This document shows, in pieces, positions 39,879 to 64,000 of a stretch of DNA of 64,000 nucleotides. Source of the stretch: Chloroflexota bacterium (GTDB taxonomy: Bacteria; Chloroflexota; Dehalococcoidia; JACQUD01); assembly GCA_016210485.1 (NCBI GenBank), contig JACQUD010000049.1, positions 5,066 through 69,065 of the forward strand, read 5' to 3'. The position numbers were made by a program, and so were the translations under genes. Under the pieces are notes generated by a model. That model made no database searches. It was not told the DNA's origin and saw only the letters and a list, made by a program, of their open reading frames with translations. Numbering within the stretch: position 1 is the first letter of the stretch; each line of letters begins with the position of its first letter.

Positions 39879-39953
39879 GGGCCGTTAGCTCAGAGGAAGA
39901 GCTCCGGACTTTTAATCCGGGAGTCCTGGGTTCGAATCCCAGACGGCTCACCA
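39879..39953 (+). tRNA. tRNA-Lys (anticodon UUU)
   Basis: Acceptor GGGCCGT/ACGGCTC. D arm AGCTCAGAGGAAGAGCT. Anticodon loop CTTTTAA. T arm CTGGGTTCGAATCCCAG. Encoded CCA. Confidence 0.9.
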
Positions 39954-40033
39954 GCGCATAGGCGGCAAGTCGTTATCCATTTTCCGAGTATTTTACCGCG
40001 ATCATCGAAGGGCTCATAGCTGAGAAATTCGTT

Positions 40034-41347
40034 TTGATTACGTGGATAAAGTTCCCCAAAATATTCTTCGGCTGGTGGACAGTTTTAGCCGGCACTTGGC
40101 TGAACTTTTGGGGGTCCGCCTATACCGTTTACGGATTTTCGGCACTATTCAAGCCGCTATCTTCGGAATTAGGCTTTAGCCGAGCTGCAACTTCGGTTGC
40201 CTCGGGAATTAGTCGGTTTGAGAGTGGGTTTTTGTCTCCTTTGGTAGGGTGGCTGGTTGATAAGTTTGGGCCGAAATGGGTCATCCTTTTCGGGGTTTAT
40301 CTCTTTAGCCTCGCCTTAATTCTAATGTACTTTGTCAATTCGCTCTGGACTTTTTATCTGGTCTGGGGACTTATATTGGGCACCGGACAGAATTTTTCAG
40401 CACACATACCGATAGACAAGGCGATAACCAACTGGTTCGTAAGAAAGAGAGGGCTAGCTTTAGGCATTAGATGGATAGCTTCTGGGGTGATAATATTACC
40501 CATTCTTACCTGGCTTATTACCAACTTGGGCTGGCGAACAACTTGCCTCATCGGTGGGATAGTAGCCGTAGTTGTTGGGACACCCATTGTCTTCTTCTCC
40601 ATAAGACAACACCGACCAGAATACTACGGATTACTCCCTGATGGCGCCACTGCGAAGGACGAGACTGCTGTAGAAACCAGTCAAATGATAGACAAGGGAA
40701 TAAAGTATGCCGCTGAGGTTGAAGAGATAGAGTTTGACGCAAGACAAGCACTGAGAACACCAGCCTTCTGGTTACTAACGATTGTCTCTGCTAGTCAGGC
40801 GGTGGCTACGGGGACTTTCTTTGTACACGCTATTCCCTTTCTTACCGATATGAACATTGAGCCTGTTAAAGCGGCAACTATTGTAACAATTGCTGGTTTG
40901 TTTGGCATCGCAGCTAGACTCATCGGTGGTATTACTGCTGACCGTCTCCGCAAAGGCCAACTTCGTTTTCTATTTATAGCAGCGCTTCTACTACAGGCTA
41001 CTGGATTTACTATCATCGTGCTAAGGCAAACTAGCACCATGGCCTATCCTTTCCTTATCTTCAGTTACGCCGGTTTTGGGCTAATTATGGTTCTAACGCC
41101 TATGATAGGCGGACGCTACTTTGGGCGCAAGGCTTTCGGGTCCATCCGAGGCTTAATGGTAACGTTCGCCATGCCATCAGCTATCGCAGGCCCCATCTAC
41201 GCTGGCTGGATATATGACACTACCGACAGCTACTCAATTGCCTTTATCACAGCGATAGCGATATCAGCCTTTGCCGCAGTTCTTATGTTCTTGGCTCGAC
41301 CTCCCAAACCACCAGCCAAAATCACCGACATCCGCCTGATCGCCTGA
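40034..41347 (+). CDS. MFS transporter (oxalate/formate antiporter-like)
   Basis: 12-TM profile, 437 aa. Clearly more AT-rich than the window average by eye. TTG start in the track. Confidence 0.8.
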   Translation: MITWIKFPKIFFGWWTVLAGTWLNFWGSAYTVYGFSALFKPLSSELGFSRAATSVASGISRFESGFLSPLVGWLVDKFGPKWVILFGVYLFSLALILMYFVNSLWTFYLVWGLILGTGQNFSAHIPIDKAITNWFVRKRGLALGIRWIASGVIILPILTWLITNLGWRTTCLIGGIVAVVVGTPIVFFSIRQHRPEYYGLLPDGATAKDETAVETSQMIDKGIKYAAEVEEIEFDARQALRTPAFWLLTIVSASQAVATGTFFVHAIPFLTDMNIEPVKAATIVTIAGLFGIAARLIGGITADRLRKGQLRFLFIAALLLQATGFTIIVLRQTSTMAYPFLIFSYAGFGLIMVLTPMIGGRYFGRKAFGSIRGLMVTFAMPSAIAGPIYAGWIYDTTDSYSIAFITAIAISAFAAVLMFLARPPKPPAKITDIRLIA

Positions 41348-53332: not shown

Positions 53333-55003
53333 ATGGAAGAAACGAGGCCAGCCCTGGACATCGCCATCATCCTGGCCGCTGCTTTGGCTGGCGGGGTGGT
53401 GGCTCGACGCCTGGGCTCCCCTGTAATCCTGGGCTACCTCATCGGCGGCATCGCCATCGGGCCCTACGGACTGCGGGCGGTGCAGGACGTGGAAATGGTG
53501 GAGGCCATGGCCAGCGTGGGGGTGGTCCTCCTCATGTTCGCCCTGGGCCTCCAGTTCTCTCTGAGGGAGCTGCGCCAGATGGGGAGGGTAGCTACCCTGG
53601 GCGGCGCTCTCCAGGTGGGGGCCACGGCAGCCCTGGGGACGGGGGTGGGGCTGCTCCTGGGCTGGGAGGCCCGGGAGTCTATCTTCCTGGGCTTCATCAT
53701 GGCCATGAGCAGCACCATGGTCCTGCTCAAGACCCTGATGGAGAGGGGAGAGCTCGATTCCCCTCACGGCAGGGTTATGCTGGGGCTGCTCATCTTTCAG
53801 GACCTGAGCGTGGTGCCTCTCATGGTCTTTCTGCCCTCCCTGGGGCAGCCGGGCCTGGGGGAGGCCATGGCCTGGGCCAGCCTCAAGGCCGTGGCGCTCC
53901 TGGCGGGGAGCCTCCTTTTGGGAGCGAGGCTGGTGCCCTGGGCCCTGGGCCGGGTGGCCACCCTGGGCTCTCGAGAGCTCTTCCTGCTCTCCGTCGTCGC
54001 TCTGAGCCTGGGCATCGCCTTCGGCACCGGGGCCGCCGGCCTGGGGATGGCCCTGGGGGCCTTCCTGGCCGGACTGCTGGTCAGCGAGTCCGACTTCGCC
54101 TACCAGGCCCTGGCCGATGTCGTCCCCATGCGGGACGTCTTCGCCATCCTCTTCTTCGTCTCCATCGGGATGCTGGTGGACCCGGCCTTCGTCTGGGAGC
54201 ATGCCTCCACGCTGACAGCCCTGGGCCTGGCCATCGTCGTCGGAAAATTCGCTATCTGCGCCCTGGTGACCCGTCTCTTCGGCTACAGCTTCAAGACCTC
54301 CCTCTTTGTGGGAGCGGGGATGATCCAGGTAGGGGAGTTCAGCCTAGTGCTGGCCCGGGTGGGCCTGGACCGGGGCGCTATCTCCCAGGACCTCTACTCT
54401 TTGACCATGGCCAGCGCCATCGTTACTATCTTACTGACCCCCCTGGCCCTGGGGTCGGCCTCCTGGGCTTACTACCGAATCGTGACGTGGCAGCCTTCCT
54501 TGCTAGCCCGAGGCGCCGACCCCGCTCCCCGGGAGGCCAGGCTGTCCCAGCACACCATCATCTGCGGCTACGGCCGGGTGGGGCAGCTCCTGGCCGAAGT
54601 GCTGGAGCGAAGGGGCTTCCCTTATCTGGCCATAGACCTGGACCCTCGGAGCATAGCCGAACTCCGAGAAAGGAAGACCCCGTGCATCTACGGCGATGCC
54701 TCTAACCTCGAGGTGCTGGCCCAGGCCGAGCTGGGCCGGGCCCGGGTGCTCATCATCGCCTTCGACGACCCCATCGCCGCGGAGCTCACTTTGAGGAATG
54801 CCCGGCGCCTGAATCCAAGGCTGGACGTGGTGGCCCGGGCGCACCGGGACGCTGACGTGGAGAGCATCCGTCGGCTGGGGGCCTCCGAGGTGGTCCGGCC
54901 CGAGTTTGAGGCCAGCCTGGAGATGTTGCGCCATACCCTCCATCGCTACGGGCTGACGGCCCAGGAGGTGCAATACATCCTGTCTACCCTGAGGCAGCAG
55001 TGA
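53333..55003 (+). CDS. CPA2-family cation:proton antiporter with a C-terminal TrkA-N (RCK) domain
   Basis: Kef-type membrane domain plus ICGYGRVGQ Rossmann domain. I chose the ATG at 53333. Confidence 0.85.
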   Translation: MEETRPALDIAIILAAALAGGVVARRLGSPVILGYLIGGIAIGPYGLRAVQDVEMVEAMASVGVVLLMFALGLQFSLRELRQMGRVATLGGALQVGATAALGTGVGLLLGWEARESIFLGFIMAMSSTMVLLKTLMERGELDSPHGRVMLGLLIFQDLSVVPLMVFLPSLGQPGLGEAMAWASLKAVALLAGSLLLGARLVPWALGRVATLGSRELFLLSVVALSLGIAFGTGAAGLGMALGAFLAGLLVSESDFAYQALADVVPMRDVFAILFFVSIGMLVDPAFVWEHASTLTALGLAIVVGKFAICALVTRLFGYSFKTSLFVGAGMIQVGEFSLVLARVGLDRGAISQDLYSLTMASAIVTILLTPLALGSASWAYYRIVTWQPSLLARGADPAPREARLSQHTIICGYGRVGQLLAEVLERRGFPYLAIDLDPRSIAELRERKTPCIYGDASNLEVLAQAELGRARVLIIAFDDPIAAELTLRNARRLNPRLDVVARAHRDADVESIRRLGASEVVRPEFEASLEMLRHTLHRYGLTAQEVQYILSTLRQQ

Positions 55004-55620
55004 GGACTCACCTCTACCTCATCCGTCACGGGCGGACGGACTGGAACCGGCAGGAGCGCTACCGGGGCCGTTTCGACCTGCCCCTGGACCAAGAGGGAGA
55101 GAGGCAGGCCCAGGCTCTGGCCCAGCGCCTGGCCCCCGTACCTCTGGAGGCCGTCTACTCCAGCCCCCTGCGCCGCGCCTGGAGCACTGCCCAGGCCGTC
55201 GTCCAGGCCCGGGGGCTGGAGGTGAGGACGCTGGCGGGCCTTCTGGACATCGACTACGGGGAGTGGCAAGGGTTGGCTCTGGATGAGGCCCAGAGCCGCT
55301 ACCCAAAGCTCTATCGAAGTTGGCAGGAGCAGCCTCAGGAGGTCAGCCTCCCCGGTGGTGAGAGCCTGGCCCAGGTGCAAGCGAGGGCTACATCAGCCCT
55401 GGAGGAGGTCAGCCGCCGTCACCCGAGAGCATTGGTGGCCCTAGTCTCTCATCGAGTAGTATGCCAGGTGATGCTCTGCGCTGCCCTGGGTTTGGGCCTA
55501 TCCCATTTCTGGCAGGTAGTGCCCGAGGTGGCCAGCCTTCAGGTTCTGGAGCACGAGGCGGGGCGCTTTCGGGTAGCGCTGTTCAACGATGCCTGCCACC
55601 TCCGAACCGCCGAGGGATGA
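55000..55620 (+). CDS. histidine phosphatase family protein (phosphoglycerate mutase / CobC-like)
   Basis: RHGRTDWN catalytic motif and a later SH. The start overlaps the upstream stop. Confidence 0.85.
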   Translation: MRTHLYLIRHGRTDWNRQERYRGRFDLPLDQEGERQAQALAQRLAPVPLEAVYSSPLRRAWSTAQAVVQARGLEVRTLAGLLDIDYGEWQGLALDEAQSRYPKLYRSWQEQPQEVSLPGGESLAQVQARATSALEEVSRRHPRALVALVSHRVVCQVMLCAALGLGLSHFWQVVPEVASLQVLEHEAGRFRVALFNDACHLRTAEG

Positions 55621-55663
55621 AGGCCCAGCTCTCTCCCGCCTGTGTTATCCGCAGATAACTTGT

Positions 55664-56404
55664 CTATGCCTTTCCCTTGCTCGCTCTGACTACAGTCCTT
55701 GCCTCCTCAGGGATAGGGGCAGGAACCGGGTCTGCTTCAATCCTCTCTATGGCAGCAAAGCGAGCGGGGCAACTTTGGAAGCAAATGTTGCAGGCTATGC
55801 ACTTCTCTTGAACGATGATATGGACCTTGTCCTTCCCGCCTATGATCGCACCTTCAGGGCATCTCCTAGCGCAGATTCCGCAGGCCGTGCATTTCTCAGG
55901 ATCGATATAGTATGAGATTAGCTTATTGTTAATGGCCCTCTCGGCTGCTGCGATATCTACCTGTATCTGATCCAGGCCTTTTCCTTCGGGTACCCCTAGG
56001 GGTCCTAATTCCTTGAGCTGCTTGGTAAAGTTGGTTATGACCTCGGCAAAGCGGATGCCTTCAGATGCGGAGACCCATTCCAGACGCAATCTCTCCGAAT
56101 TCAGCCCGATCTGCTCCAGCAACTTCTTGGACCGCTTGATCACTTCCACGGCATGGTAATTGCCGTTAGTGACATAGTGGCATTCATCGAGCCAGCAACC
56201 GCCGATAAAGACCCCGTCTGCTCCATTCGAAAAAGCCCGGAAAATGAATTTCGGGTCGACCCTCCCGGAGCACATCACCCTTATTATCCTTATGTTGGGA
56301 GGGTATTGATACCGGGAAACTCCGGCTAGGTCCGCCCCAGCGTAGCAACACCAGTTGCACAGAAATCCTAGAATCTTCGGCTCGAATTCGTGTGTCATAA
56401 CCAT
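55664..56404 (-). CDS. MvhD/FlpD-like domain fused to a 2x[4Fe-4S] ferredoxin domain (BamF-like)
   Basis: ILGFLCNWCCYAGADLAG....MCSGRVD is the MvhD signature. C-terminal CTACGICARRCP and CIACNICFQSCP. Confidence 0.75.
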   Translation of the reverse strand: MVMTHEFEPKILGFLCNWCCYAGADLAGVSRYQYPPNIRIIRVMCSGRVDPKFIFRAFSNGADGVFIGGCWLDECHYVTNGNYHAVEVIKRSKKLLEQIGLNSERLRLEWVSASEGIRFAEVITNFTKQLKELGPLGVPEGKGLDQIQVDIAAAERAINNKLISYYIDPEKCTACGICARRCPEGAIIGGKDKVHIIVQEKCIACNICFQSCPARFAAIERIEADPVPAPIPEEARTVVRASKGKA

Positions 56405-56438
56405 TCTAGCTCGCTCCTAAAGAGTCACTATCCTGTTA

Positions 56439-59400
56439 TCAGTGAACTTTGACCGGGACCGGCAGCGCCGCATCGATGGCGTCAAGGATCTGGTCATCGG
56501 TATAGTGTTTTGTGGTAATCGCACATGTTATGCATTTCGTACTGCACAGACCGCATCCCTTGCAAAGGACGGAGATAACGTTGGCCTTTTTGCCTTGCGG
56601 CGTATCAAGCATTTGTATGGCGCCGTATGTGCAAGCCGTCGCACACTGACCGCACCCAACGCACTTGCTCTCTTCCACCTCGGCAATAGCAGCAGAAGCG
56701 GTGACCGTATCCCTGGAAAGAATGGCTCCCGCTCTGCCCGCCGCTCCGTAAGCCTGGCTAATCGTTTCCGGCAGGTGCTTAGGATAGTGGGCTGTTCCAC
56801 ACAGGAAAATACCATCCGCTGCAAAATCAACTGGCCTCAGTTTCACGTGAGCTTCCTGGAAGAAACCGTCCGGGCTCAGAGGTATTTTCCATAGTCGGGA
56901 TGTTTCAGTATTTGTTGCCGCCGGGATAACAGCTGCCGCCAGGGCCACTACATCGGCATCCAGGGCAAGCTTCTTACCCAGGATAGTGTCAGTCACGGTG
57001 ACCCTTAGAATGCGCTTGCCGCTCTCCTCAACAACCTGGACATCGGGCTTGTCCTCTGGCTCATAGCGGATGAACTTCACTTCCCGGTTCGCAGCTTCTC
57101 GGTAGTAGTCTTCTCTGAACCCGTAGGTCCTCATGTCCCGGAATATGATATAAATATCCGCTGCGGGATTCTTATCTTTGAGCTTCAGAGCTTCCTTTAT
57201 GGAATGGCTGCAACATACCCGGCTACAGTAGTTCCTGTCCTTTTGTCGGCAGCCCACGCACTGAATCATCACCATGCTCTGGGCGTTGACTACCGCTGGC
57301 TCGTCTTTGGCGATCTTCTCCTCTAGTTCCATCAGTGTCATTATCCGTTCGTCTTGCCCGTAAAGGTACTCTGTTGGTTTATATTCTTCCGCACCGGTGG
57401 CGACAATGACTATGCCGTGCTTTATTTCCTTGACCACGCTGCCGGACTTTACCTTGGTGACAAAGTTTCCGACATAGCCGGAAGCCTCTGTGATAGTGGC
57501 ATCCGTGTACTTGTGGATCAAGGGGTGCTTGTTGACTCTGCCCACGAGGTCGGTCAGGTATGCTTGAACATCCAGACCTTCCAGGGTGTGATAAAGTTTT
57601 CGGGCCATGCCGCCCAGCTCTTTATCCTTCTCTACCAGGTAAACCTCGTATCCCTGGTTGGCCAGGTTCATAGCGGCGGTCATCCCAGCCACACCTCCAC
57701 CGACCACCAGGCCCCTCTTATCGACTGGCAGGTCGAATTCCTTCAAAGGCTGCAGCGCTTTAACCCGAGCCACCGACATCCGAAGCAGGTCTTTGGCCTT
57801 TTGGGTGGCCTTTTCCTGCTCCTTCGAGTGAACCCAGGAGCAATGTTCCCTGATATTGGTGAACTCAAAGAAGTACTGGTTTAACCCAGCCTCGCGAAGG
57901 GTGTCTCGGAATAGCGGCTCGTGTGTTCTGGGGGTGCAGGCGGCAACGATCACGCGATTGAGATGCTTTTCCTTAACCATATCCGTTATCTTCTGAGCAG
58001 AATCGGTCGAACAAGAAAAGAGGTCTTGTTGAACGTGGACAACCCCGGGCAGAGTCCTCGTATATTCTTCTAGCTCTGGCATTCCAACAACTCTGCCGAT
58101 ATTGGCTCCGCAGTGACACAGGAAGACCCCAATCCTCGGCTCCTCACCAGTTACATCCCTTTCCTCAGGATACACCCTTTTCCGAGATAGCTTGCCACGC
58201 CGGCGGGCAAGGAGCTCACTCATCAGGGCGGTGGCCCCGCTGGCAGTTACCACCGACTCGGGGATATCTATCGGACCTTGGAAGGCCCCACTGACGAATA
58301 TCCCCTTTCGGGAGGTCTGGATGGGGTTCGTTGGATCGTTCTTGCAAAAGTTGTGAGGCTCGAGTTCGATGCCGAACTTGCGGGCCAGTTCCTGCACGTC
58401 GCCGGGCGGGTTCAGTCCCACGGACAAGACCACCATATCGAACTCTTCTTCTTTCACCCCATCGGTTGGGGTGGAGTATCTTATGGTTACATTCTTGGTC
58501 TCAGGGATCTCTCTGCCTAGAGAGACGTAGCTCCTGATGAAGCGGATGCCGGGGAGGTTCTCTGTCCTCTGGTAAAAGCGTTCGAAGTCCTTGCCCCACG
58601 ACCGAATATCGTTGTGAAAGATGGTAGCCTTGACCTCACTGTCGTGGTCTTTGGCCAGGATGACCTGCTTCTGAGTGTATGAGCAGCATACGGATGAACA
58701 ATAGCCATTGCCGCCCGGGGTGACTTGCCTGGAGCCTACGCACTGGATCCAGGCCATATTCTTGGGGTGCTTACCGTCAGAAGGTCGCCTCATCTCACCT
58801 TCGTAAGGGCCGGTGGAACAAAGAATTCGCTCAAAGTCCATGCTGGTGACAACGTTCGGCATCGTTCCATAGCCGTAGTCGCCCCTTATCTTGGGGTCGA
58901 AAATCTCAAAGCCTGGGGATAACAGAATGGCCCCGACTTCTACTTCTACCTCCTCCGCCTTCTGGAAGAGGTTTATGGCATCATTCTTACAGACAGCCGT
59001 GCAAATGCTGCATTTGCCCTCTTTGAGGAAAAGGCAGGTTTCAGGGTCTATATAGGTAATCAGCGGGACAGCCTGGGAAAAGTAAATATGGGTGGCTTTG
59101 CTGTGACCTATGTTCTGGTTGAACCTATTGGGGATCTTAACCGGGCAATACTCGTTGCAAGTAGTGCAGCCGCGACATTTATCAAGGCTAACGTACCTCG
59201 GTTTTCTAGTCAGGGTTACTTTGAACTTGCCGGCCTCTCCCTCCACTTTGTCGACTTCAGTATAGGAAAGTATTTCAATATTGGGGTGCCGGAGGCATTC
59301 AATAAACTTGGGAGACTCGATGCACATGGAGCAGTCGTTGGTGGGGAAGGTTTTATCGAGCTGGGCCATATGTCCGCCCAGAGCTGGGGACTTATCTACC

Positions 59401-59525
59401 AGAAAGACCCTGAAACCCATGCCGCCCATATCCAGGGCCGCCTGGATGCCGCTAATTCCGCCACCGACGATGAGAACATCACCAGGGTTAGCCGAGGTTA
59501 AACTGAGATCCTTTCCTTCAGCCAT
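56439..59525 (-). CDS. double HdrA-like FAD/FeS oxidoreductase (BamE-like)
   Basis: 1028 aa with two dinucleotide folds (VLIVGGGISGIQAALD and GLVVGGGVAGMTAAMN). Several Cys clusters, including C-terminal CVGCGQCATAC and CKGCGLCSTKC. Confidence 0.8.
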   Translation of the reverse strand: MAEGKDLSLTSANPGDVLIVGGGISGIQAALDMGGMGFRVFLVDKSPALGGHMAQLDKTFPTNDCSMCIESPKFIECLRHPNIEILSYTEVDKVEGEAGKFKVTLTRKPRYVSLDKCRGCTTCNEYCPVKIPNRFNQNIGHSKATHIYFSQAVPLITYIDPETCLFLKEGKCSICTAVCKNDAINLFQKAEEVEVEVGAILLSPGFEIFDPKIRGDYGYGTMPNVVTSMDFERILCSTGPYEGEMRRPSDGKHPKNMAWIQCVGSRQVTPGGNGYCSSVCCSYTQKQVILAKDHDSEVKATIFHNDIRSWGKDFERFYQRTENLPGIRFIRSYVSLGREIPETKNVTIRYSTPTDGVKEEEFDMVVLSVGLNPPGDVQELARKFGIELEPHNFCKNDPTNPIQTSRKGIFVSGAFQGPIDIPESVVTASGATALMSELLARRRGKLSRKRVYPEERDVTGEEPRIGVFLCHCGANIGRVVGMPELEEYTRTLPGVVHVQQDLFSCSTDSAQKITDMVKEKHLNRVIVAACTPRTHEPLFRDTLREAGLNQYFFEFTNIREHCSWVHSKEQEKATQKAKDLLRMSVARVKALQPLKEFDLPVDKRGLVVGGGVAGMTAAMNLANQGYEVYLVEKDKELGGMARKLYHTLEGLDVQAYLTDLVGRVNKHPLIHKYTDATITEASGYVGNFVTKVKSGSVVKEIKHGIVIVATGAEEYKPTEYLYGQDERIMTLMELEEKIAKDEPAVVNAQSMVMIQCVGCRQKDRNYCSRVCCSHSIKEALKLKDKNPAADIYIIFRDMRTYGFREDYYREAANREVKFIRYEPEDKPDVQVVEESGKRILRVTVTDTILGKKLALDADVVALAAAVIPAATNTETSRLWKIPLSPDGFFQEAHVKLRPVDFAADGIFLCGTAHYPKHLPETISQAYGAAGRAGAILSRDTVTASAAIAEVEESKCVGCGQCATACTYGAIQMLDTPQGKKANVISVLCKGCGLCSTKCITCAITTKHYTDDQILDAIDAALPVPVKVH

Positions 59526-59576
59526 CTTCTTCCATCCTTAATCGAGTCTGAGTCCTCCAGCCAAGTTCACTATGTC

Positions 59577-60377
59577 TCATATCGAACAACCAAGCCGCTC
59601 CGGGTGGGAATACACCGAGAGCCGGTTGCCACGCACGTAGCCCACTAGAGCTATGCCCAAGTCATGGGCCAGAGAGACGGCGCGTCCCGTTGGCGAAGTC
59701 CGCGATACAACAACTGGCGTCTGCATCCTTGCCGCCTTGAGCAACATCTCGGACGAAACGCGGCCGGTGCTCAGTAGCAGTCGGTCCCTGGTTGATATAC
59801 CCCTTAATAGGCACTCTCCCTGTATCTTATCCAGGGTGTTATGTCTTCCGATATCTTCAGATACTACCAGCAGCTCGCTGGTGTCGCACAGCGCCGAGGC
59901 ATGTACGCCACCGCAAAGTCGGTACAGTGCCATCTGCTCTTGAAACTGCTTCATCAGGGAAAAGATGTTCGCTGGTGTAACCACAAGCCCCGATTCAACC
60001 TTCTGCGCCTCAGTCTTAAAGGCGGCGCCGCCGCCGCAGCCAGAGGTCAATGTTCGCAGTGTCGGCAGTTTGTATTCTGAGTTCATCAGCCTAACATCGA
60101 CCTCGGACTCATCGTCACAAACTCGCATGCTCGCTACATCATCCATGCCCGAGATTATCCCCTCTGTGTACAGGAATCCGAGGACAAGACAATTCAGCTT
60201 GCTTGGAGTGCACATGACGGTGACCAGTTCCTGTTGATTGACGTAGATAGTAACATCCGTCTCATCAGGCACGGAAACCGCAATGCGGGCCCACCCCTCG
60301 TCCGAAAACCGGTTGCAGGGTATGTTCGGCACACTACCCCTTATCGTCGATACGCCTGTAGCCTCTGGCATGCTCAT
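59577..60377 (-). CDS. fdhD: FdhD-family sulfurtransferase/accessory protein
   Basis: EDIGRHNTLDK, GGVHASAL, SGRVSSEMLLKAARMQTPVVVSRTSPT. The loop reads TSGCGGG instead of the two-Cys SCGxCG. Confidence 0.85.
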   Translation of the reverse strand: MSMPEATGVSTIRGSVPNIPCNRFSDEGWARIAVSVPDETDVTIYVNQQELVTVMCTPSKLNCLVLGFLYTEGIISGMDDVASMRVCDDESEVDVRLMNSEYKLPTLRTLTSGCGGGAAFKTEAQKVESGLVVTPANIFSLMKQFQEQMALYRLCGGVHASALCDTSELLVVSEDIGRHNTLDKIQGECLLRGISTRDRLLLSTGRVSSEMLLKAARMQTPVVVSRTSPTGRAVSLAHDLGIALVGYVRGNRLSVYSHPERLGCSI

Positions 60378-60390
60378 CTTCCTCGGTATC

Positions 60391-61533
60391 CTAAATTGCT
60401 TCCTGGAGAACCTCTGTGATGTCTTTTATCTCTATGGCCTCACTACCCTCCAGGGTTAGCCTGCTAGCCTCAAAATTCATGATACAATAAGGGCAGGCGG
60501 TAACCAGCACGTCAGCCTTGCCAGCGATTGCCTGTTCCACCCTGAGGTCAGAGAACCTCTCGCCCTTCTTCCTGTCCATCCAGATTCCGCCTCCTCCCCC
60601 GCCGCAACAAAGGCTGCCTTTCCGAGAATCAGGCATCTCGAACATTCGCAAACCAGGCACCTTCTTCAAGACCTCTCGTGGCTCGTCATATATGCCATTA
60701 TGTCGTCCCAGGTAACACGGGTCATGATAAGTTACCTTCTTCTTATAGTCCTTGGTAAGCTTTAGCCTTCCCTCATTGATAAGCTCCAGCAGATACTGGG
60801 TGATATGCACCACCTCGAAATTGACCATAAACTCGGGGTACTCGTTCTTGAAGGTGTGGTAGCAGTGAGGCGAGGACACTAGTATCTTCTTCACACCGCT
60901 TTCGATGAACGTCTTGATGTTTTCCCTGGCTAAATGTCTGAATAGCTCTTCATCGCCCACCTTGCGCGCACTTTCGCCACAGCAGTTCTCCTTGACCCCC
61001 AGTATCCCAAAATCGACCCCCGCCGTGCTAAGGATTTTGGCGGTGGCAGTGGCAACCTTCCTCAACCTCGGATCATAGCTAAGGTAACAGCAAGGGAGAT
61101 ACAAAACTTCCATCCCCTCGGTGAAAGTTTTTACGGATAGACCCTGTGTCCAATCTTCCCTTTTTGCTCGTGGTTCCCCCAACGGGTTACCCTCCGCACG
61201 CAGGCTTGCAGTAGCGATGTGAATCGGGTCCGGAACAATCCCAGCACCGGAGGCAATCCTACGCAGGGATGTCCCCACCTTTATTATTTCTACCCCCCTG
61301 GGGCATTGCTGAACGCAGTTTCGGCAGGTGGTACAACGCCAGATTTCTTCGCCCTCTACCTCAGACAAACCGAACGCAGCCTGCCTGATTATGTTGCGAA
61401 TACTGAATGTCCTTACCCTATTCCACGGACAGACAGTATCGCACATCCCGCATTGATAGCAGAATTTGAAGGCTTCTCCACCAGCCTCTTTTATAACATC
61501 GATTCCTTCTTTGAAGGGGGCTACAGTCTCCAT
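60391..61533 (-). CDS. HdrD-like FeS protein with two CCG domains (BamD-like)
   Basis: CYQCGMCDTVCP and CTTCRNCVQQCP, then CCG-domain cysteines (PCCY, NCCGE, DPCYLGR, SLCCGGGGG). Confidence 0.8.
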   Translation of the reverse strand: METVAPFKEGIDVIKEAGGEAFKFCYQCGMCDTVCPWNRVRTFSIRNIIRQAAFGLSEVEGEEIWRCTTCRNCVQQCPRGVEIIKVGTSLRRIASGAGIVPDPIHIATASLRAEGNPLGEPRAKREDWTQGLSVKTFTEGMEVLYLPCCYLSYDPRLRKVATATAKILSTAGVDFGILGVKENCCGESARKVGDEELFRHLARENIKTFIESGVKKILVSSPHCYHTFKNEYPEFMVNFEVVHITQYLLELINEGRLKLTKDYKKKVTYHDPCYLGRHNGIYDEPREVLKKVPGLRMFEMPDSRKGSLCCGGGGGGIWMDRKKGERFSDLRVEQAIAGKADVLVTACPYCIMNFEASRLTLEGSEAIEIKDITEVLQEAI

Positions 61534-61558
61534 TGCTTTTTCCTCTTTCCCTTGATGT

Positions 61559-62092
61559 TTAGCTCTTCCCCAGTCGGGAAAGGGTATCCATTACTACCTT
61601 CACCCCGTGTTGCTTCACTAATGCTTCCAGGCCTACCTCTATCTCCAGCGGCCGCGTCGGTTCCTCTTCCTCCACTTCCTCTTCCACTTCTTCGTAAATC
61701 AGAGCATCATTTATGCACCATTCAACACACTTCGGCTCCTTCAATGGAGGCTCATCTTCACACATATCGCATTTTAGGGGGAGGTTAGAATCTGGGTCCC
61801 TGAAAAGCTTCCGAGATGGGCAGGAAGCCCGGCAGAAGTCACATTCGTCATATGTCTTCCCGTCCACAGTATAGACGTTTTTGCCGTTACATTCGGAATC
61901 GGTATACTCACCGGCATATACCGGCACGAATATGTCTCTGAGCGGGTCATGGACTACCCGTATTCGGGACCTGTCCGGATTAGAGCTGCTGTATTTTGGC
62001 TCAGCATGAAAAGCGGAGCAGATTGCCTCGCACGCCCGGCAACCATTGCACTTGTCGACGTCGATCTTTATTAGTTTCTTGACCTTCTTCAC
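61559..62092 (-). CDS. poly-[4Fe-4S] ferredoxin-like subunit (BamC-like)
   Basis: CNGCRACEAIC, CDFCRASCP, CDMCE....CVEWC. 177 aa; GTG start. Confidence 0.7.
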   Translation of the reverse strand: MKKVKKLIKIDVDKCNGCRACEAICSAFHAEPKYSSSNPDRSRIRVVHDPLRDIFVPVYAGEYTDSECNGKNVYTVDGKTYDECDFCRASCPSRKLFRDPDSNLPLKCDMCEDEPPLKEPKCVEWCINDALIYEEVEEEVEEEEPTRPLEIEVGLEALVKQHGVKVVMDTLSRLGKS

Positions 62093-62178
62093 TTAAGAGG
62101 ACCCCCTTCCCCTCGAACTTCTCGCTGACGAAACCCAGACCTAATTCATGTCAGGTCTCTCCGGTCGAAATGCCCTCG
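62093..62178 (-). pseudogene. relic of the 3' end of a second AOR/BamB-like gene
   Basis: Directly after the AOR stop, the minus strand reads EGISTGET*HELGLGFVSEKFEGKGVLL. This parallels the intact C-terminus EGVPTKETLHELGLDYVAEEFELKGILK. One in-frame TGA. Confidence 0.55.
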
Positions 62179-64000
62179 CTATCGCACCCCTTGGGTTTCT
62201 GGCACTCGTTCTTCTTCCTTCAGAATCCCTTTTAGTTCGAACTCCTCGGCAACGTAATCCAGCCCAAGTTCATGCAAGGTCTCTTTAGTCGGAACACCCT
62301 CGTTATTCCATCCCTTGAATTTGTAGTACTCATCGAGCAGTTTGCTTTCGAGCTCGGGGAATCTCCTTTTCCAATGATCCTCAGGAGGTTTCTCATCTGC
62401 TTTCTTCATGCCCCTTCTTATGTTGAGACATCTGAGCAGGTTCCGGTTCCTCCTGGCTATCTTCTTAAGCCCTTCTTCATCCAGGTCCATCCCGGTCGCT
62501 GCTGAGATTATGCGCGGGAAATTGTGGATATGATACGGGGGCTTTATGGGGAAGGAAGACAAACCAGCGCAGGTTCCGACGGAGTCATCGATGTAGTGCA
62601 TCATCTCCTGCCAGTCAACGATCTCGCAGGTTGCCTCAATGGACGGGTAATGGGGAAGCGTGCGCGGCTCCCAGTTCAAGACGAAGTCTTTGAACTTATC
62701 GTTGGGAACCTGGATCCAATCCCTTACGAACTCCTCCTTGTCTTCCTTGGTGGCGAAGGGCGCTTGGGGTATTTGCCCTTCGATCTGGGTGATGTTGATC
62801 TTCTCACCTGTGGCCCACATGAGGTAATAGATGGGATTCATTATCCCCAACTTGATGGGGATTTGCTCGTGTTTCTTAATGGTATTGTGGTCGTAGGCTT
62901 CTGCACCCCTGCCGATCTGACGGGCCGCCCAATAAACGCCATTGGCCAGGACATCTCCGATGCCCTCCCGCCGCACGATCTTCTCCAGCAAATAGAAGAA
63001 TCTCTCCTCAGTGGTGGCTGGGAATCCGGGCAGATCCTGGTCAGTCAAGATACCAGCTTCGTAAAGTTCGACGCCGAAGGCTAGGACTTGCGGCGTGGTG
63101 TATCCGTCGACCCCGTACTCCTGGCCAAGGCCCGCAATATTTAAGCCAAACGCAAGGTCTGAATCGGCCGCCATGGTGTACGTGAGTTTGGAGTAGCACT
63201 TCATTAGGTATCTGCCGAGTTTTTCATGCTCGACGACTGCCCCGCATTTCATGGGGCAGTTATAGCAACTGATCAGTCGCTCTACCTTATTATCTTGGAC
63301 CACCTTCCATTTAGCTTCGATTTCCTTGGTCCAGTAATCGCTTCTCCTGATGCGGGCATTTCCCCAGGCGAAGCTGGAAGTATGCCACGCTTCATCATGC
63401 AACTTCATCTCCTGAGGCGACCCCAGCCCGGCCAGGATGGGCGGTACATTCTTGATCGGATTGTCGTTCCGGAATTGAATGTACTTCAGGATGTCGTTGC
63501 AAAGCTCATTGAATTCAGCCGGGCGAGCGACGTTGATGTCCTTTGTGCCGCGGACTGCTATCGCCTTTATTCCCTTGTCTCCCATAATGCCGCCTATGCC
63601 GCCGCGGCTGGCGCTGGACCTGCCATGCTCGATAGAAGCGTAATGGACTTTGTTCTCGCCGGCCAGGCCAATAGCAAGCACCTGGGCTTCTTTATCCTTC
63701 ACTTCGCGCCGAATAATCTCTGCGGTCTCAAGCGCCCCTTTGCCCCGCAAGTGAGAAGCGTCGCGTATTTCTACTTTATCGTTGTTTATCCATAAATAGA
63801 CCAGCTTGGGGGATTTGCCACGAATGACCACTTTATCATAACCGGCATGCTTCAGTTCTGGCGCCCAAAATCCTCCCATTACGGAGTATGCTGATAACAA
63901 GGTTTGAGGGGAAAAGGTAGAAACTATCATACGGTTAGCACCAGGAGCAAGGGTTCCAGCTAAGAGGCCAGCGCTAAATATCAATAAGTTCTCAGGAGAA
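62179..64000 (-). CDS. tungsten-pterin aldehyde:ferredoxin oxidoreductase family protein, BamB-like; 5' end lies beyond the window
   Basis: The frame stays open to position 64000 (...SPENLLIFSAGLLAGT). FeS motif CYNCPMKCG. The blocks GGFWAPELKHAGYDK, EKINITQIEGQ, DWQEMMHYIDD and GLSSFPIKPPYHIHN match my recollection of BamB rather than Pyrococcus-type AOR. Confidence 0.8.
   Translation of the reverse strand, partial: SPENLLIFSAGLLAGTLAPGANRMIVSTFSPQTLLSAYSVMGGFWAPELKHAGYDKVVIRGKSPKLVYLWINNDKVEIRDASHLRGKGALETAEIIRREVKDKEAQVLAIGLAGENKVHYASIEHGRSSASRGGIGGIMGDKGIKAIAVRGTKDINVARPAEFNELCNDILKYIQFRNDNPIKNVPPILAGLGSPQEMKLHDEAWHTSSFAWGNARIRRSDYWTKEIEAKWKVVQDNKVERLISCYNCPMKCGAVVEHEKLGRYLMKCYSKLTYTMAADSDLAFGLNIAGLGQEYGVDGYTTPQVLAFGVELYEAGILTDQDLPGFPATTEERFFYLLEKIVRREGIGDVLANGVYWAARQIGRGAEAYDHNTIKKHEQIPIKLGIMNPIYYLMWATGEKINITQIEGQIPQAPFATKEDKEEFVRDWIQVPNDKFKDFVLNWEPRTLPHYPSIEATCEIVDWQEMMHYIDDSVGTCAGLSSFPIKPPYHIHNFPRIISAATGMDLDEEGLKKIARRNRNLLRCLNIRRGMKKADEKPPEDHWKRRFPELESKLLDEYYKFKGWNNEGVPTKETLHELGLDYVAEEFELKGILKEEERVPETQGVR

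Follow-up and report, generated by a model that had tools for sequence, protein, structure and literature searches.

The class II benzoyl-CoA reductases (BCRs; CoA, coenzyme A) catalyze one of the lowest-potential reductions in biology and underlie the degradation of aromatics under anoxic conditions in sediments and aquifers. To our knowledge, all biochemistry and structures of class II BCRs come from the eight-subunit Geobacter/Desulfosarcina enzyme. Here, we describe a minus-strand bam cluster at positions 55664 to 64000 of a 64-kb window (the whole stretch of DNA that was analyzed) in a contig from a Chloroflexota metagenome-assembled genome (MAG). The block is probably a class II (ATP-independent, tungsten) BCR operon with the gene order bamB-C-D-fdhD-E-F, acquired horizontally by this uncultured member of the Chloroflexota. 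Its closest characterized counterpart is the Geobacter metallireducens complex Bam[(BC)2DEFGHI]2 (4Z3W-4Z40; preprint 10.64898/2026.04.10.717634), whose BamB to BamF are orthologous to the proteins encoded here and follow in the same order. The likeness extends to the tungsten ligand Cys322, the Zn-site and proton-relay residues, the Fe-S motifs, the CxxC and flavin adenine dinucleotide (FAD) lysine of BamE (by residue offset), and the MvhD-like core of BamF. The window cluster differs in lacking adjacent bamGHI, in carrying fdhD between bamD and bamE, and in a BamF with Cys19 instead of selenocysteine (Sec). The two BamF proteins also end differently, with a BamH-like 2x[4Fe-4S] domain here and a BamI-contacting extension in Geobacter, and the window BamD keeps a cysteine, Cys148, that most orthologues lack.

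Other described systems share parts of this arrangement. An FdhD gene also lies between those of BamD and BamE in the benzene-degrading Desulfobacterota ORM2a and in Peptococcaceae BF (Bacillota), which are different hosts; in ORM2a, however, BamGHI are present (PMC13101534). The sulfate reducer NaphS2 (NPH_7171-7176; PMC2988823) likewise has bamB-F without adjacent bamGHI, in a cluster that is benzoate induced, but its BamGHI homologues reside in a separate cluster (PMC2988823). Among electron-bifurcating complexes, the methanogen heterodisulfide reductase MvhAGD-HdrABC (PDB 5ODC) resembles the window proteins in that BamE corresponds to HdrA, BamF to MvhD (with a CNWC motif and Cys rather than Sec), and BamD has HdrBC-like CCG domains. 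By contrast with that complex, the window system has two HdrA units fused and permuted in BamE, delivers its low-potential electrons to an AOR-family tungsten enzyme rather than to ferredoxin, and involves no hydrogenase. Finally, FdhD belongs to the same fold family as the proteins of Escherichia coli (4PDE) and Desulfotalea psychrophila (2PW9) and keeps the first loop cysteine of the E. coli protein. The second cysteine is replaced by Gly (SGCGGG, as in 2PW9), and the gene sits in an AOR-family operon with no formate dehydrogenase nearby.

Open reading frame (ORF) listing and translation yielded six uninterrupted minus-strand ORFs in 55664-64000, separated, in the bamF to bamB direction, by 34, 51, 13, 25, and 86 bp. 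The features are as follows.

55000..55620, plus strand: histidine phosphatase gene (PspA/CobC-like; PF00300, 214 bits), host-like with a GC content at third codon positions (GC3) of 0.78; boundary marker, outside the system
55621..55663, no strand: 43-bp spacer from the convergent host gene to the bamF stop; left edge of the foreign block
55664..56404, minus strand: bamF, 246 aa, with an FlpD/MvhD domain (aa 11-134) and Fer4 (aa 165-215)
55667..55927, minus strand: segment of bamF encoding its ferredoxin domain (aa 160-246), a homologue of the BamH C-terminal domain
56439..59525, minus strand: bamE, 1028 aa, a fused double HdrA with a C-terminal ferredoxin domain
59577..60377, minus strand: fdhD, 266 aa, FdhD/NarQ, separated by 13 bp from bamD and by 51 bp from bamE
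60391..61533, minus strand: bamD, 380 aa, HdrD/HdrBC-like, with two [4Fe-4S] motifs and two CCG domains
61559..62092, minus strand: bamC, 177-aa poly-ferredoxin (NCBI accession MBI4297607)
62179..64000, minus strand, running past the window edge: bamB, 606 aa visible, AFOR_N and AFOR_C

Only the left edge of the block is visible, as its right-hand boundary falls beyond the window end; about 51 N-terminal BamB residues lie past that edge, judged by the 657-aa orthologue of locus L083. The source MAG has NCBI protein records MBI4297603 to MBI4297607. The original prediction, made from the DNA letters alone, had described six co-directional genes with gaps of at most about 90 bp, ending at a convergent housekeeping gene at 55620. 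The ORFs, the 13- to 86-bp gaps, and the phosphatase gene bear this out, and Pfam and NCBIfam confirm its domain assignments for all six proteins. A scan of 55.3-64 kb for promoters and terminators gave nothing above shuffled expectation and no terminator-like site in the 55621-55663 spacer. Relatives were collected in a one-genome-per-species scan that returned more than 596 BamB relatives, the best 80 of which underlie the locus counts below (loci are given as L numbers). The B-C-D-E-F gene order is kept in nearly all of about 60 related loci.

The identity of the catalytic core rests on BamB and BamC. The window BamB matches Geobacter BamB (PDB 4Z3W_A) with an E-value of 5.8e-289 and 67% identity, whereas the next-best match is Pyrococcus AOR at 1.8e-59, and AOR, FOR, WOR5, and GAPOR-type chains all score 1.8e-59 or worse. 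BamC matches its Geobacter counterpart (PDB 4Z3W_E; E-value, 4.6e-71; 64% identity) and has 12 cysteines, enough for three [4Fe-4S] clusters, through which it would wire BamE to BamB. In Geobacter numbering, the tungsten ligand Cys322 is present as visible residue 268 within YLMKC, the Fe-S cysteines 299/302/306 are conserved, and Glu251, His255, Glu257, and His260 of the Zn site and proton relay are all kept, with SPQEMKLHDEAWH aligned to Geobacter SPQEMKVHDEKWH. According to a 2025 review (PMC12096430), Cys322 is the tungsten ligand of every BamB and YdhV protein but of no other AOR/WOR-family member, and the four relay residues are invariant. On a neighbor-joining (NJ) tree with BamB paralogues of 52-59% identity as the outgroup, the window BamB is sister to that of L083 in a Dehalococcoidales clade, and Geobacter BamB nests in the same ingroup. 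A generic aldehyde oxidoreductase was rejected on the 230-order E-value gap favoring BamB and on the presence of Cys322 and the Zn-site residues. On these sequence grounds, the resemblance to Bam noticed in the original prediction is orthology, not mere likeness. The BamBC matches to crystal chains, the BamB residues, and the tree nesting together favor the first of the two options raised there, a dearomatizing reductase, over an AOR-Hdr complex with another substrate.

The absence of BamGHI tracks the type of BamF. No homologue of BamG, BamH, or BamI was found anywhere in the 64-kb window. For the comparison across loci, BamG, H, and I queries were taken from L057, queries for EMO (ETF:menaquinone oxidoreductase, where ETF is electron-transferring flavoprotein), EtfB, and EtfA were taken from L005, and identities were confirmed by Pfam. 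We scored those clusters in which BamF was complete and the sequence extended far enough downstream (n = 52, including the window). In 32 of them, again including the window, BamF has two CxxCxxCxxxC motifs after the MvhD domain, and none has BamGHI downstream. The other 20 have a BamF without such motifs, and in 19 of these one or more of the BamGHI genes follow: all three in 17, while the L044 contig ends inside bamH and L011 has a BamI-like gene only. Thus, the missing BamGHI define a recurrent, BamF-linked type and not a truncation. In the window BamF, an MvhD-like N-terminal domain (E-value, 1.4e-48 against 5ODC_D) is followed by a C-terminal domain with the motifs at residues 172 and 202. 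This latter domain (aa 160-246) is 57-61% identical to BamH aa 558-642 (E-value, ~1e-36), whereas other ferredoxin domains of the complex match it at 1e-3 or worse. The BamH-like domain occurs in 34 of 34 testable ferredoxin-type BamFs (55-80% identity) and in 0 of 19 BamFs of the bamGHI type. The lack of BamGHI and the inserted fdhD had been singled out as two departures of this locus from the Bam paradigm; both are real, but neither is peculiar to it, as BamGHI are absent in 32 of 52 clusters and the fdhD insertion recurs.

In Geobacter, the C-terminal domain of BamH, with clusters H1/H2, has been assigned as the acceptor of external reduced ferredoxin, and BamF has been described as an adaptor contacting BamI (preprint 10.64898/2026.04.10.717634). 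Homology of the BamF domain to this ferredoxin-accepting domain suggests a direct ferredoxin input, so that in bamGHI-less enzymes ferredoxin may feed BamF without NADH confurcation. The two BamF types are interspersed on the BamB tree, which argues that the modules have been exchanged repeatedly. BamF also varies at its selenocysteine position. Geobacter BamF carries Sec19 (preprint 10.64898/2026.04.10.717634), and 40 of 55 relatives have an in-frame stop at this aligned position, confirmed as TGA in the three genes checked at codon level. Codon 19 of the window BamF is TGT (Cys), and its clade has TGT/TGC. In the literature searched, outside which the likeliest prior sources lie, there is no earlier account of the BamF dichotomy or of a Chloroflexota class II BCR. 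The BamF/BamH domain relationship is somewhat more novel than the locus itself, whose novelty is modest.

Several related loci show further variation in these modules. BamH comes in two lengths, 639-642 aa with the C-terminal ferredoxin domain and 551-564 aa without it, the short form being found in Betaproteobacteria-type clusters and a few others (lengths from L010, L013, L028, L032, L042, L043, L049, L056, L057, L059, L064, L067, L068, L075, L079, L080, and L081). Two bam clusters stand in tandem in the Dethiobacteria/Bacillota MAG loci L079 (1-17330) and L075: the first is B-C-D-E-F-G-H-I with a short BamF, and the second is B-C-FdhD-E-F with a ferredoxin-type BamF and no BamD. The Dehalococcoidia locus L011 (17392-18582) combines an FdhD between D and E with a 189-aa BamF without the ferredoxin domain and a BamI-like protein only, with no BamG or BamH, and may represent an intermediate arrangement.

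BamD, BamE, and BamF carry the features of an Hdr-like bifurcating module: cubane and CCG motifs in BamD, a double HdrA with CxxC and an FAD-N5 lysine in BamE, and the MvhD [2Fe-2S] site in BamF. PDB comparison chains for these three subunits were those of methanogen Hdr/Mvh only, and their Geobacter counterparts enter by their published features. BamE scores 936/741 bits with the HdrA2/HdrA models, which delimit two HdrA-like FAD units, and aligns to HdrA 5ODC_A (E-value, 2.5e-191) in three permuted segments, as expected of a fused double HdrA. Assuming a constant six-residue offset, its CxxC 65/68 and Lys286 map to Geobacter Cys59/Cys62 and Lys280. BamE is presumed to be the electron-bifurcating subunit. 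BamD is 63-80% identical to BamD of at least 55 loci, and all 18 of its cysteines are mapped. Of 59 orthologues, 16 have Cys at residue 148 (window codon 61090-61092) and 43 have Gly; the Cys148 group includes the window, L083, and all eight clusters in which EMO-EtfBA genes follow bamF. All eight have a ferredoxin-domain BamF. ETF is the reported acceptor for BamD, and most BamDs have a disrupted distal non-cubane cluster (preprint 10.64898/2026.04.10.717634). The neighborhood of EMO-EtfBA and these eight clusters fits ETF in that role. Where Cys148 is replaced, the distal cluster may have lost one of its ligands, which may be how it came to be disrupted.

FdhD is full length, scoring 252.5 bits with PF02634 (cut-off, 27.2) and 186.9 bits with TIGR00129 (cut-off, 140.9), and matches PDB 2PW9 and E. 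coli FdhD 4PDE with E-values of 1.5e-28 and 2.7e-19, respectively. FdhDs 63-82% identical to it lie between bamD and bamE in L083-85, L011, L015, L018, L069, and L072; in L075 and L079, where the cluster has no bamD, they directly follow bamC. With L083-L085 taken as one near-identical cluster on three metagenome contigs, this amounts to eight further FdhD-bearing clusters in all, from Chloroflexota and Bacillota. More distant FdhDs are encoded divergently upstream of bamB in four Dehalococcoidales loci and just after bamF in four Desulfobacteraceae loci. The inserted and upstream proteins have a single-cysteine SGCGG loop, as in 2PW9, whereas the Desulfobacteraceae FdhDs after bamF have an E. 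coli-type CxxC. Two FdhD subtypes are thus independently linked to bam clusters, which argues for a functional tie. Published data add to this picture: the ORM2a FdhD was detected in the proteome and called a chaperone (PMC13101534), the gene at the same place in Peptococcaceae BF was transcribed in culture and listed under 'bamI' (PMC5852087), and a 2026 survey found FdhD adjoining an enzyme of the YdhV type, which makes up the other branch of the family with a Cys ligand. Our guess is that FdhD most likely acts in the maturation or insertion of BamB's tungsten cofactor.

By its composition, the block is foreign to its surroundings. Its GC content is ~0.52, versus 0.61 elsewhere in the window and 0.64-0.70 in the DNA adjoining it on the left, and the GC3 of the bam genes (0.58-0.63; median, 0.62) departs from the host median of 0.77 (Mann-Whitney p = 7e-6). 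In tetranucleotide usage, the block correlates with the host at 0.66 versus at least 0.93 for every other 8-kb segment, and nowhere else in the window is the dinucleotide signature distance as large. The GC deficit relative to the flanks is also the largest of 46 loci. We rejected the explanation that conserved Cys/Lys-rich proteins impose a low GC content: the bam clusters of the high-GC hosts L028, L043, L044, L049, L063, L067, and L081 match their flanks at 62-64% GC, so a low value is not dictated by the proteins. The original prediction had noted that the block is more AT-rich than the DNA to its left and had called horizontal acquisition probable. All three profiles (GC, GC3, and tetranucleotide) shift accordingly, and horizontal acquisition is supported by this composition; the junction was also assembled independently. 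The donor was most likely a lower-GC, Dehalococcoidia-like lineage.

The relatives place the cluster in a familiar phylogenetic setting. The best BamB relatives are from Dehalococcoidales/Dehalococcoidia MAGs (73-80% identity), and at least 15 of the best 80 are from Dehalococcoidia or other Chloroflexota MAGs. Therefore, the host, which had been thought unusual for a dearomatizing reductase, is only mildly so. The closest cluster, L083-L085 from a groundwater metagenome, shares all six genes, fdhD among them, and their order. It is 80% identical in DNA over window positions 55675-63983, and its proteins are 80-94% identical. Ratios of nonsynonymous to synonymous divergence (dN/dS) against L083 are 0.03-0.13 across all six genes (0.125 for fdhD) at a synonymous divergence (dS) of ~1, which points to purifying selection over a long time in at least one of the two lineages.

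By homology to the Geobacter complex, we infer the following route. Reduced ferredoxin would dock on the C-terminal 2x[4Fe-4S] domain of BamF, and electrons would pass through its MvhD-like [2Fe-2S] site to the bifurcating FAD of BamE. The low-potential electron would then travel via BamE, the three BamC clusters, and the BamB [4Fe-4S] cluster to the Cys-ligated tungsten cofactor, where BamB would reduce benzoyl-CoA to cyclohexa-1,5-diene-1-carbonyl-CoA. The high-potential electron would exit by BamD to an ETF encoded elsewhere in the genome. Such an enzyme would dispense with the NADH/ferredoxin-confurcating BamGHI module of Geobacter. The resulting picture is a minimal, selenium-free, and NADH-independent class II BCR that has the BamH ferredoxin domain on BamF, relies on ferredoxin-only HdrA-type bifurcation, and has its Cys-ligated tungsten cofactor matured by a single-cysteine FdhD. 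We put this full model forward tentatively, with somewhat less than even confidence.

A number of observations weigh against a BCR operon working as outlined here. The NJ tree of BamB has no bootstrap support. Across 83 BamB orthologues, 279 alignment columns show a conservation of 95% or more, and the window protein deviates from 12 of them (median, 3; Geobacter, 8). One of them is Thr78->Met, a position that is Thr in all 83 others, including the 85%-identical L083. The codon concerned is window 63928-63930 (visible residue 24), and either a real substitution or a sequencing error is possible. Of the cysteine pair in the E. coli GCGVCG loop, which we take to be Cys121/Cys124, the SGCGGG loop of FdhD retains the first alone. 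The sixth tungsten ligand of BamB has been reported as water, not sulfide (PMC12096430), so a sulfur transfer by FdhD is not obviously needed; on the same ground, we prefer a cofactor-chaperone or insertion role for this protein. No homologues of benzoate-CoA ligase, EtfAB, or EMO were found in the 64-kb window, where ring-hydrolysis genes were not specifically searched, and a separate BamGHI set may lie elsewhere in the genome, as in NaphS2. Some of these points would also fit a complex built around a BamB-family paralogue whose substrate is another aryl-CoA, e.g., a substituted benzoyl-CoA. Aromatic degraders carry several bamB genes (six in Desulfotomaculum gibsoniae), the 12 deviating columns include, besides Thr78->Met, a Met319->Leu change near Cys322, and the expected benzoate-CoA ligase gene is missing from the window. 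We nevertheless consider another substrate unlikely: the protein is 67% identical to the characterized Geobacter BamB, it nests among orthologues while recognizable paralogues stand at 52-59%, and most of its deviations are conservative, with no named catalytic or proton-relay residue among them.

A benzoyl-CoA-reducing operon could still have arrived too recently to serve its host, as an incomplete or silent cluster without partners that does not support aromatic degradation. The strongly foreign composition and the mere 43 bp between the block and housekeeping genes are in line with such a recent transfer, as are the ligase, ETF, and ETF:quinone oxidoreductase genes not found within the 64 kb and the lack, after the window bamF, of the CoA-pathway genes (3-hydroxyacyl-CoA dehydrogenase and enoyl-CoA hydratase) that follow bamF in L083. 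However, all six reading frames are intact, dN/dS stays at 0.03-0.13 over a dS of ~1, and partner genes are often unlinked in other genomes, which makes this explanation quite unlikely. An assembly or binning chimera at the high/low-GC junction would account for how abruptly the GC content of this MAG contig changes at 55.6 kb, but it is very improbable and largely refuted by independent assemblies. Logan contig L086 (SRR12113401) crosses the junction, reproducing window 54043-55869 at 100% with the host antiporter gene, the phosphatase gene, and 206 bp of bamF, and a contig from a second sequencing run reaches 55677. Our preferred reading therefore remains a horizontally acquired class II BCR operon.

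The neighborhoods of this and related clusters offer some further observations. Ten large host ORFs in the window are unrelated housekeeping genes. At L083 11795-14027, what comes after bamF is a 93-aa piece from the C terminus of an AMP-dependent CoA ligase and then genes for the 3-hydroxyacyl-CoA dehydrogenase and enoyl-CoA hydratase mentioned above, none of which occurs after the window bamF. In 11 Chloroflexota loci (L003-L007, L009, L011, L016, L031, L045, and L052), a ~287-aa protein that looks PaaX-like by eye is encoded just upstream of bamB, at 53-68% identity; it is absent in L083, which has a divergent MFS gene there. This arrangement suggests aryl-CoA-responsive control of the operons that bear the PaaX-like gene. 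An RNA search of the window returned a single tRNA. An MFS gene at 40034-41347 (GC3, 0.49) comes after the tRNA-Lys(TTT) gene at 39879-39953 in a patch with a GC content of 0.52; this patch (39879-41347) is the only other clearly AT-rich one in the window and may be a second small foreign islet. A link between this MFS gene at 40 kb and the bam block was rejected, as 33% identity to the L083 MFS protein encoded beside bamB is too weak.

To conclude, the locus itself is otherwise expected, being a well-conserved member of a known enzyme family, and the bamGHI-less build that it represents is widespread but biochemically uncharacterized. Most scorable clusters among the closest 80 relatives (32/52) have this other build, with no BamGHI and the BamH ferredoxin domain fused to BamF. 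The coupled reaction of the Geobacter enzyme was not reconstituted in vitro because reduced ferredoxin short-circuited to ETF (preprint 10.64898/2026.04.10.717634). The operon described here is compact, selenocysteine free, and equipped with its own FdhD, which makes it a reasonable candidate for heterologous production. If the proposed scheme is true, the six-gene version, found in the majority of sampled clusters, would provide a simpler system for studying bifurcation-driven ring reduction in vitro, and the two-stage confurcation/bifurcation of Geobacter would count as an elaboration, not as something that ring reduction requires. The cluster also adds to the evidence that groundwater Chloroflexota can acquire ATP-independent ring reduction by gene transfer.

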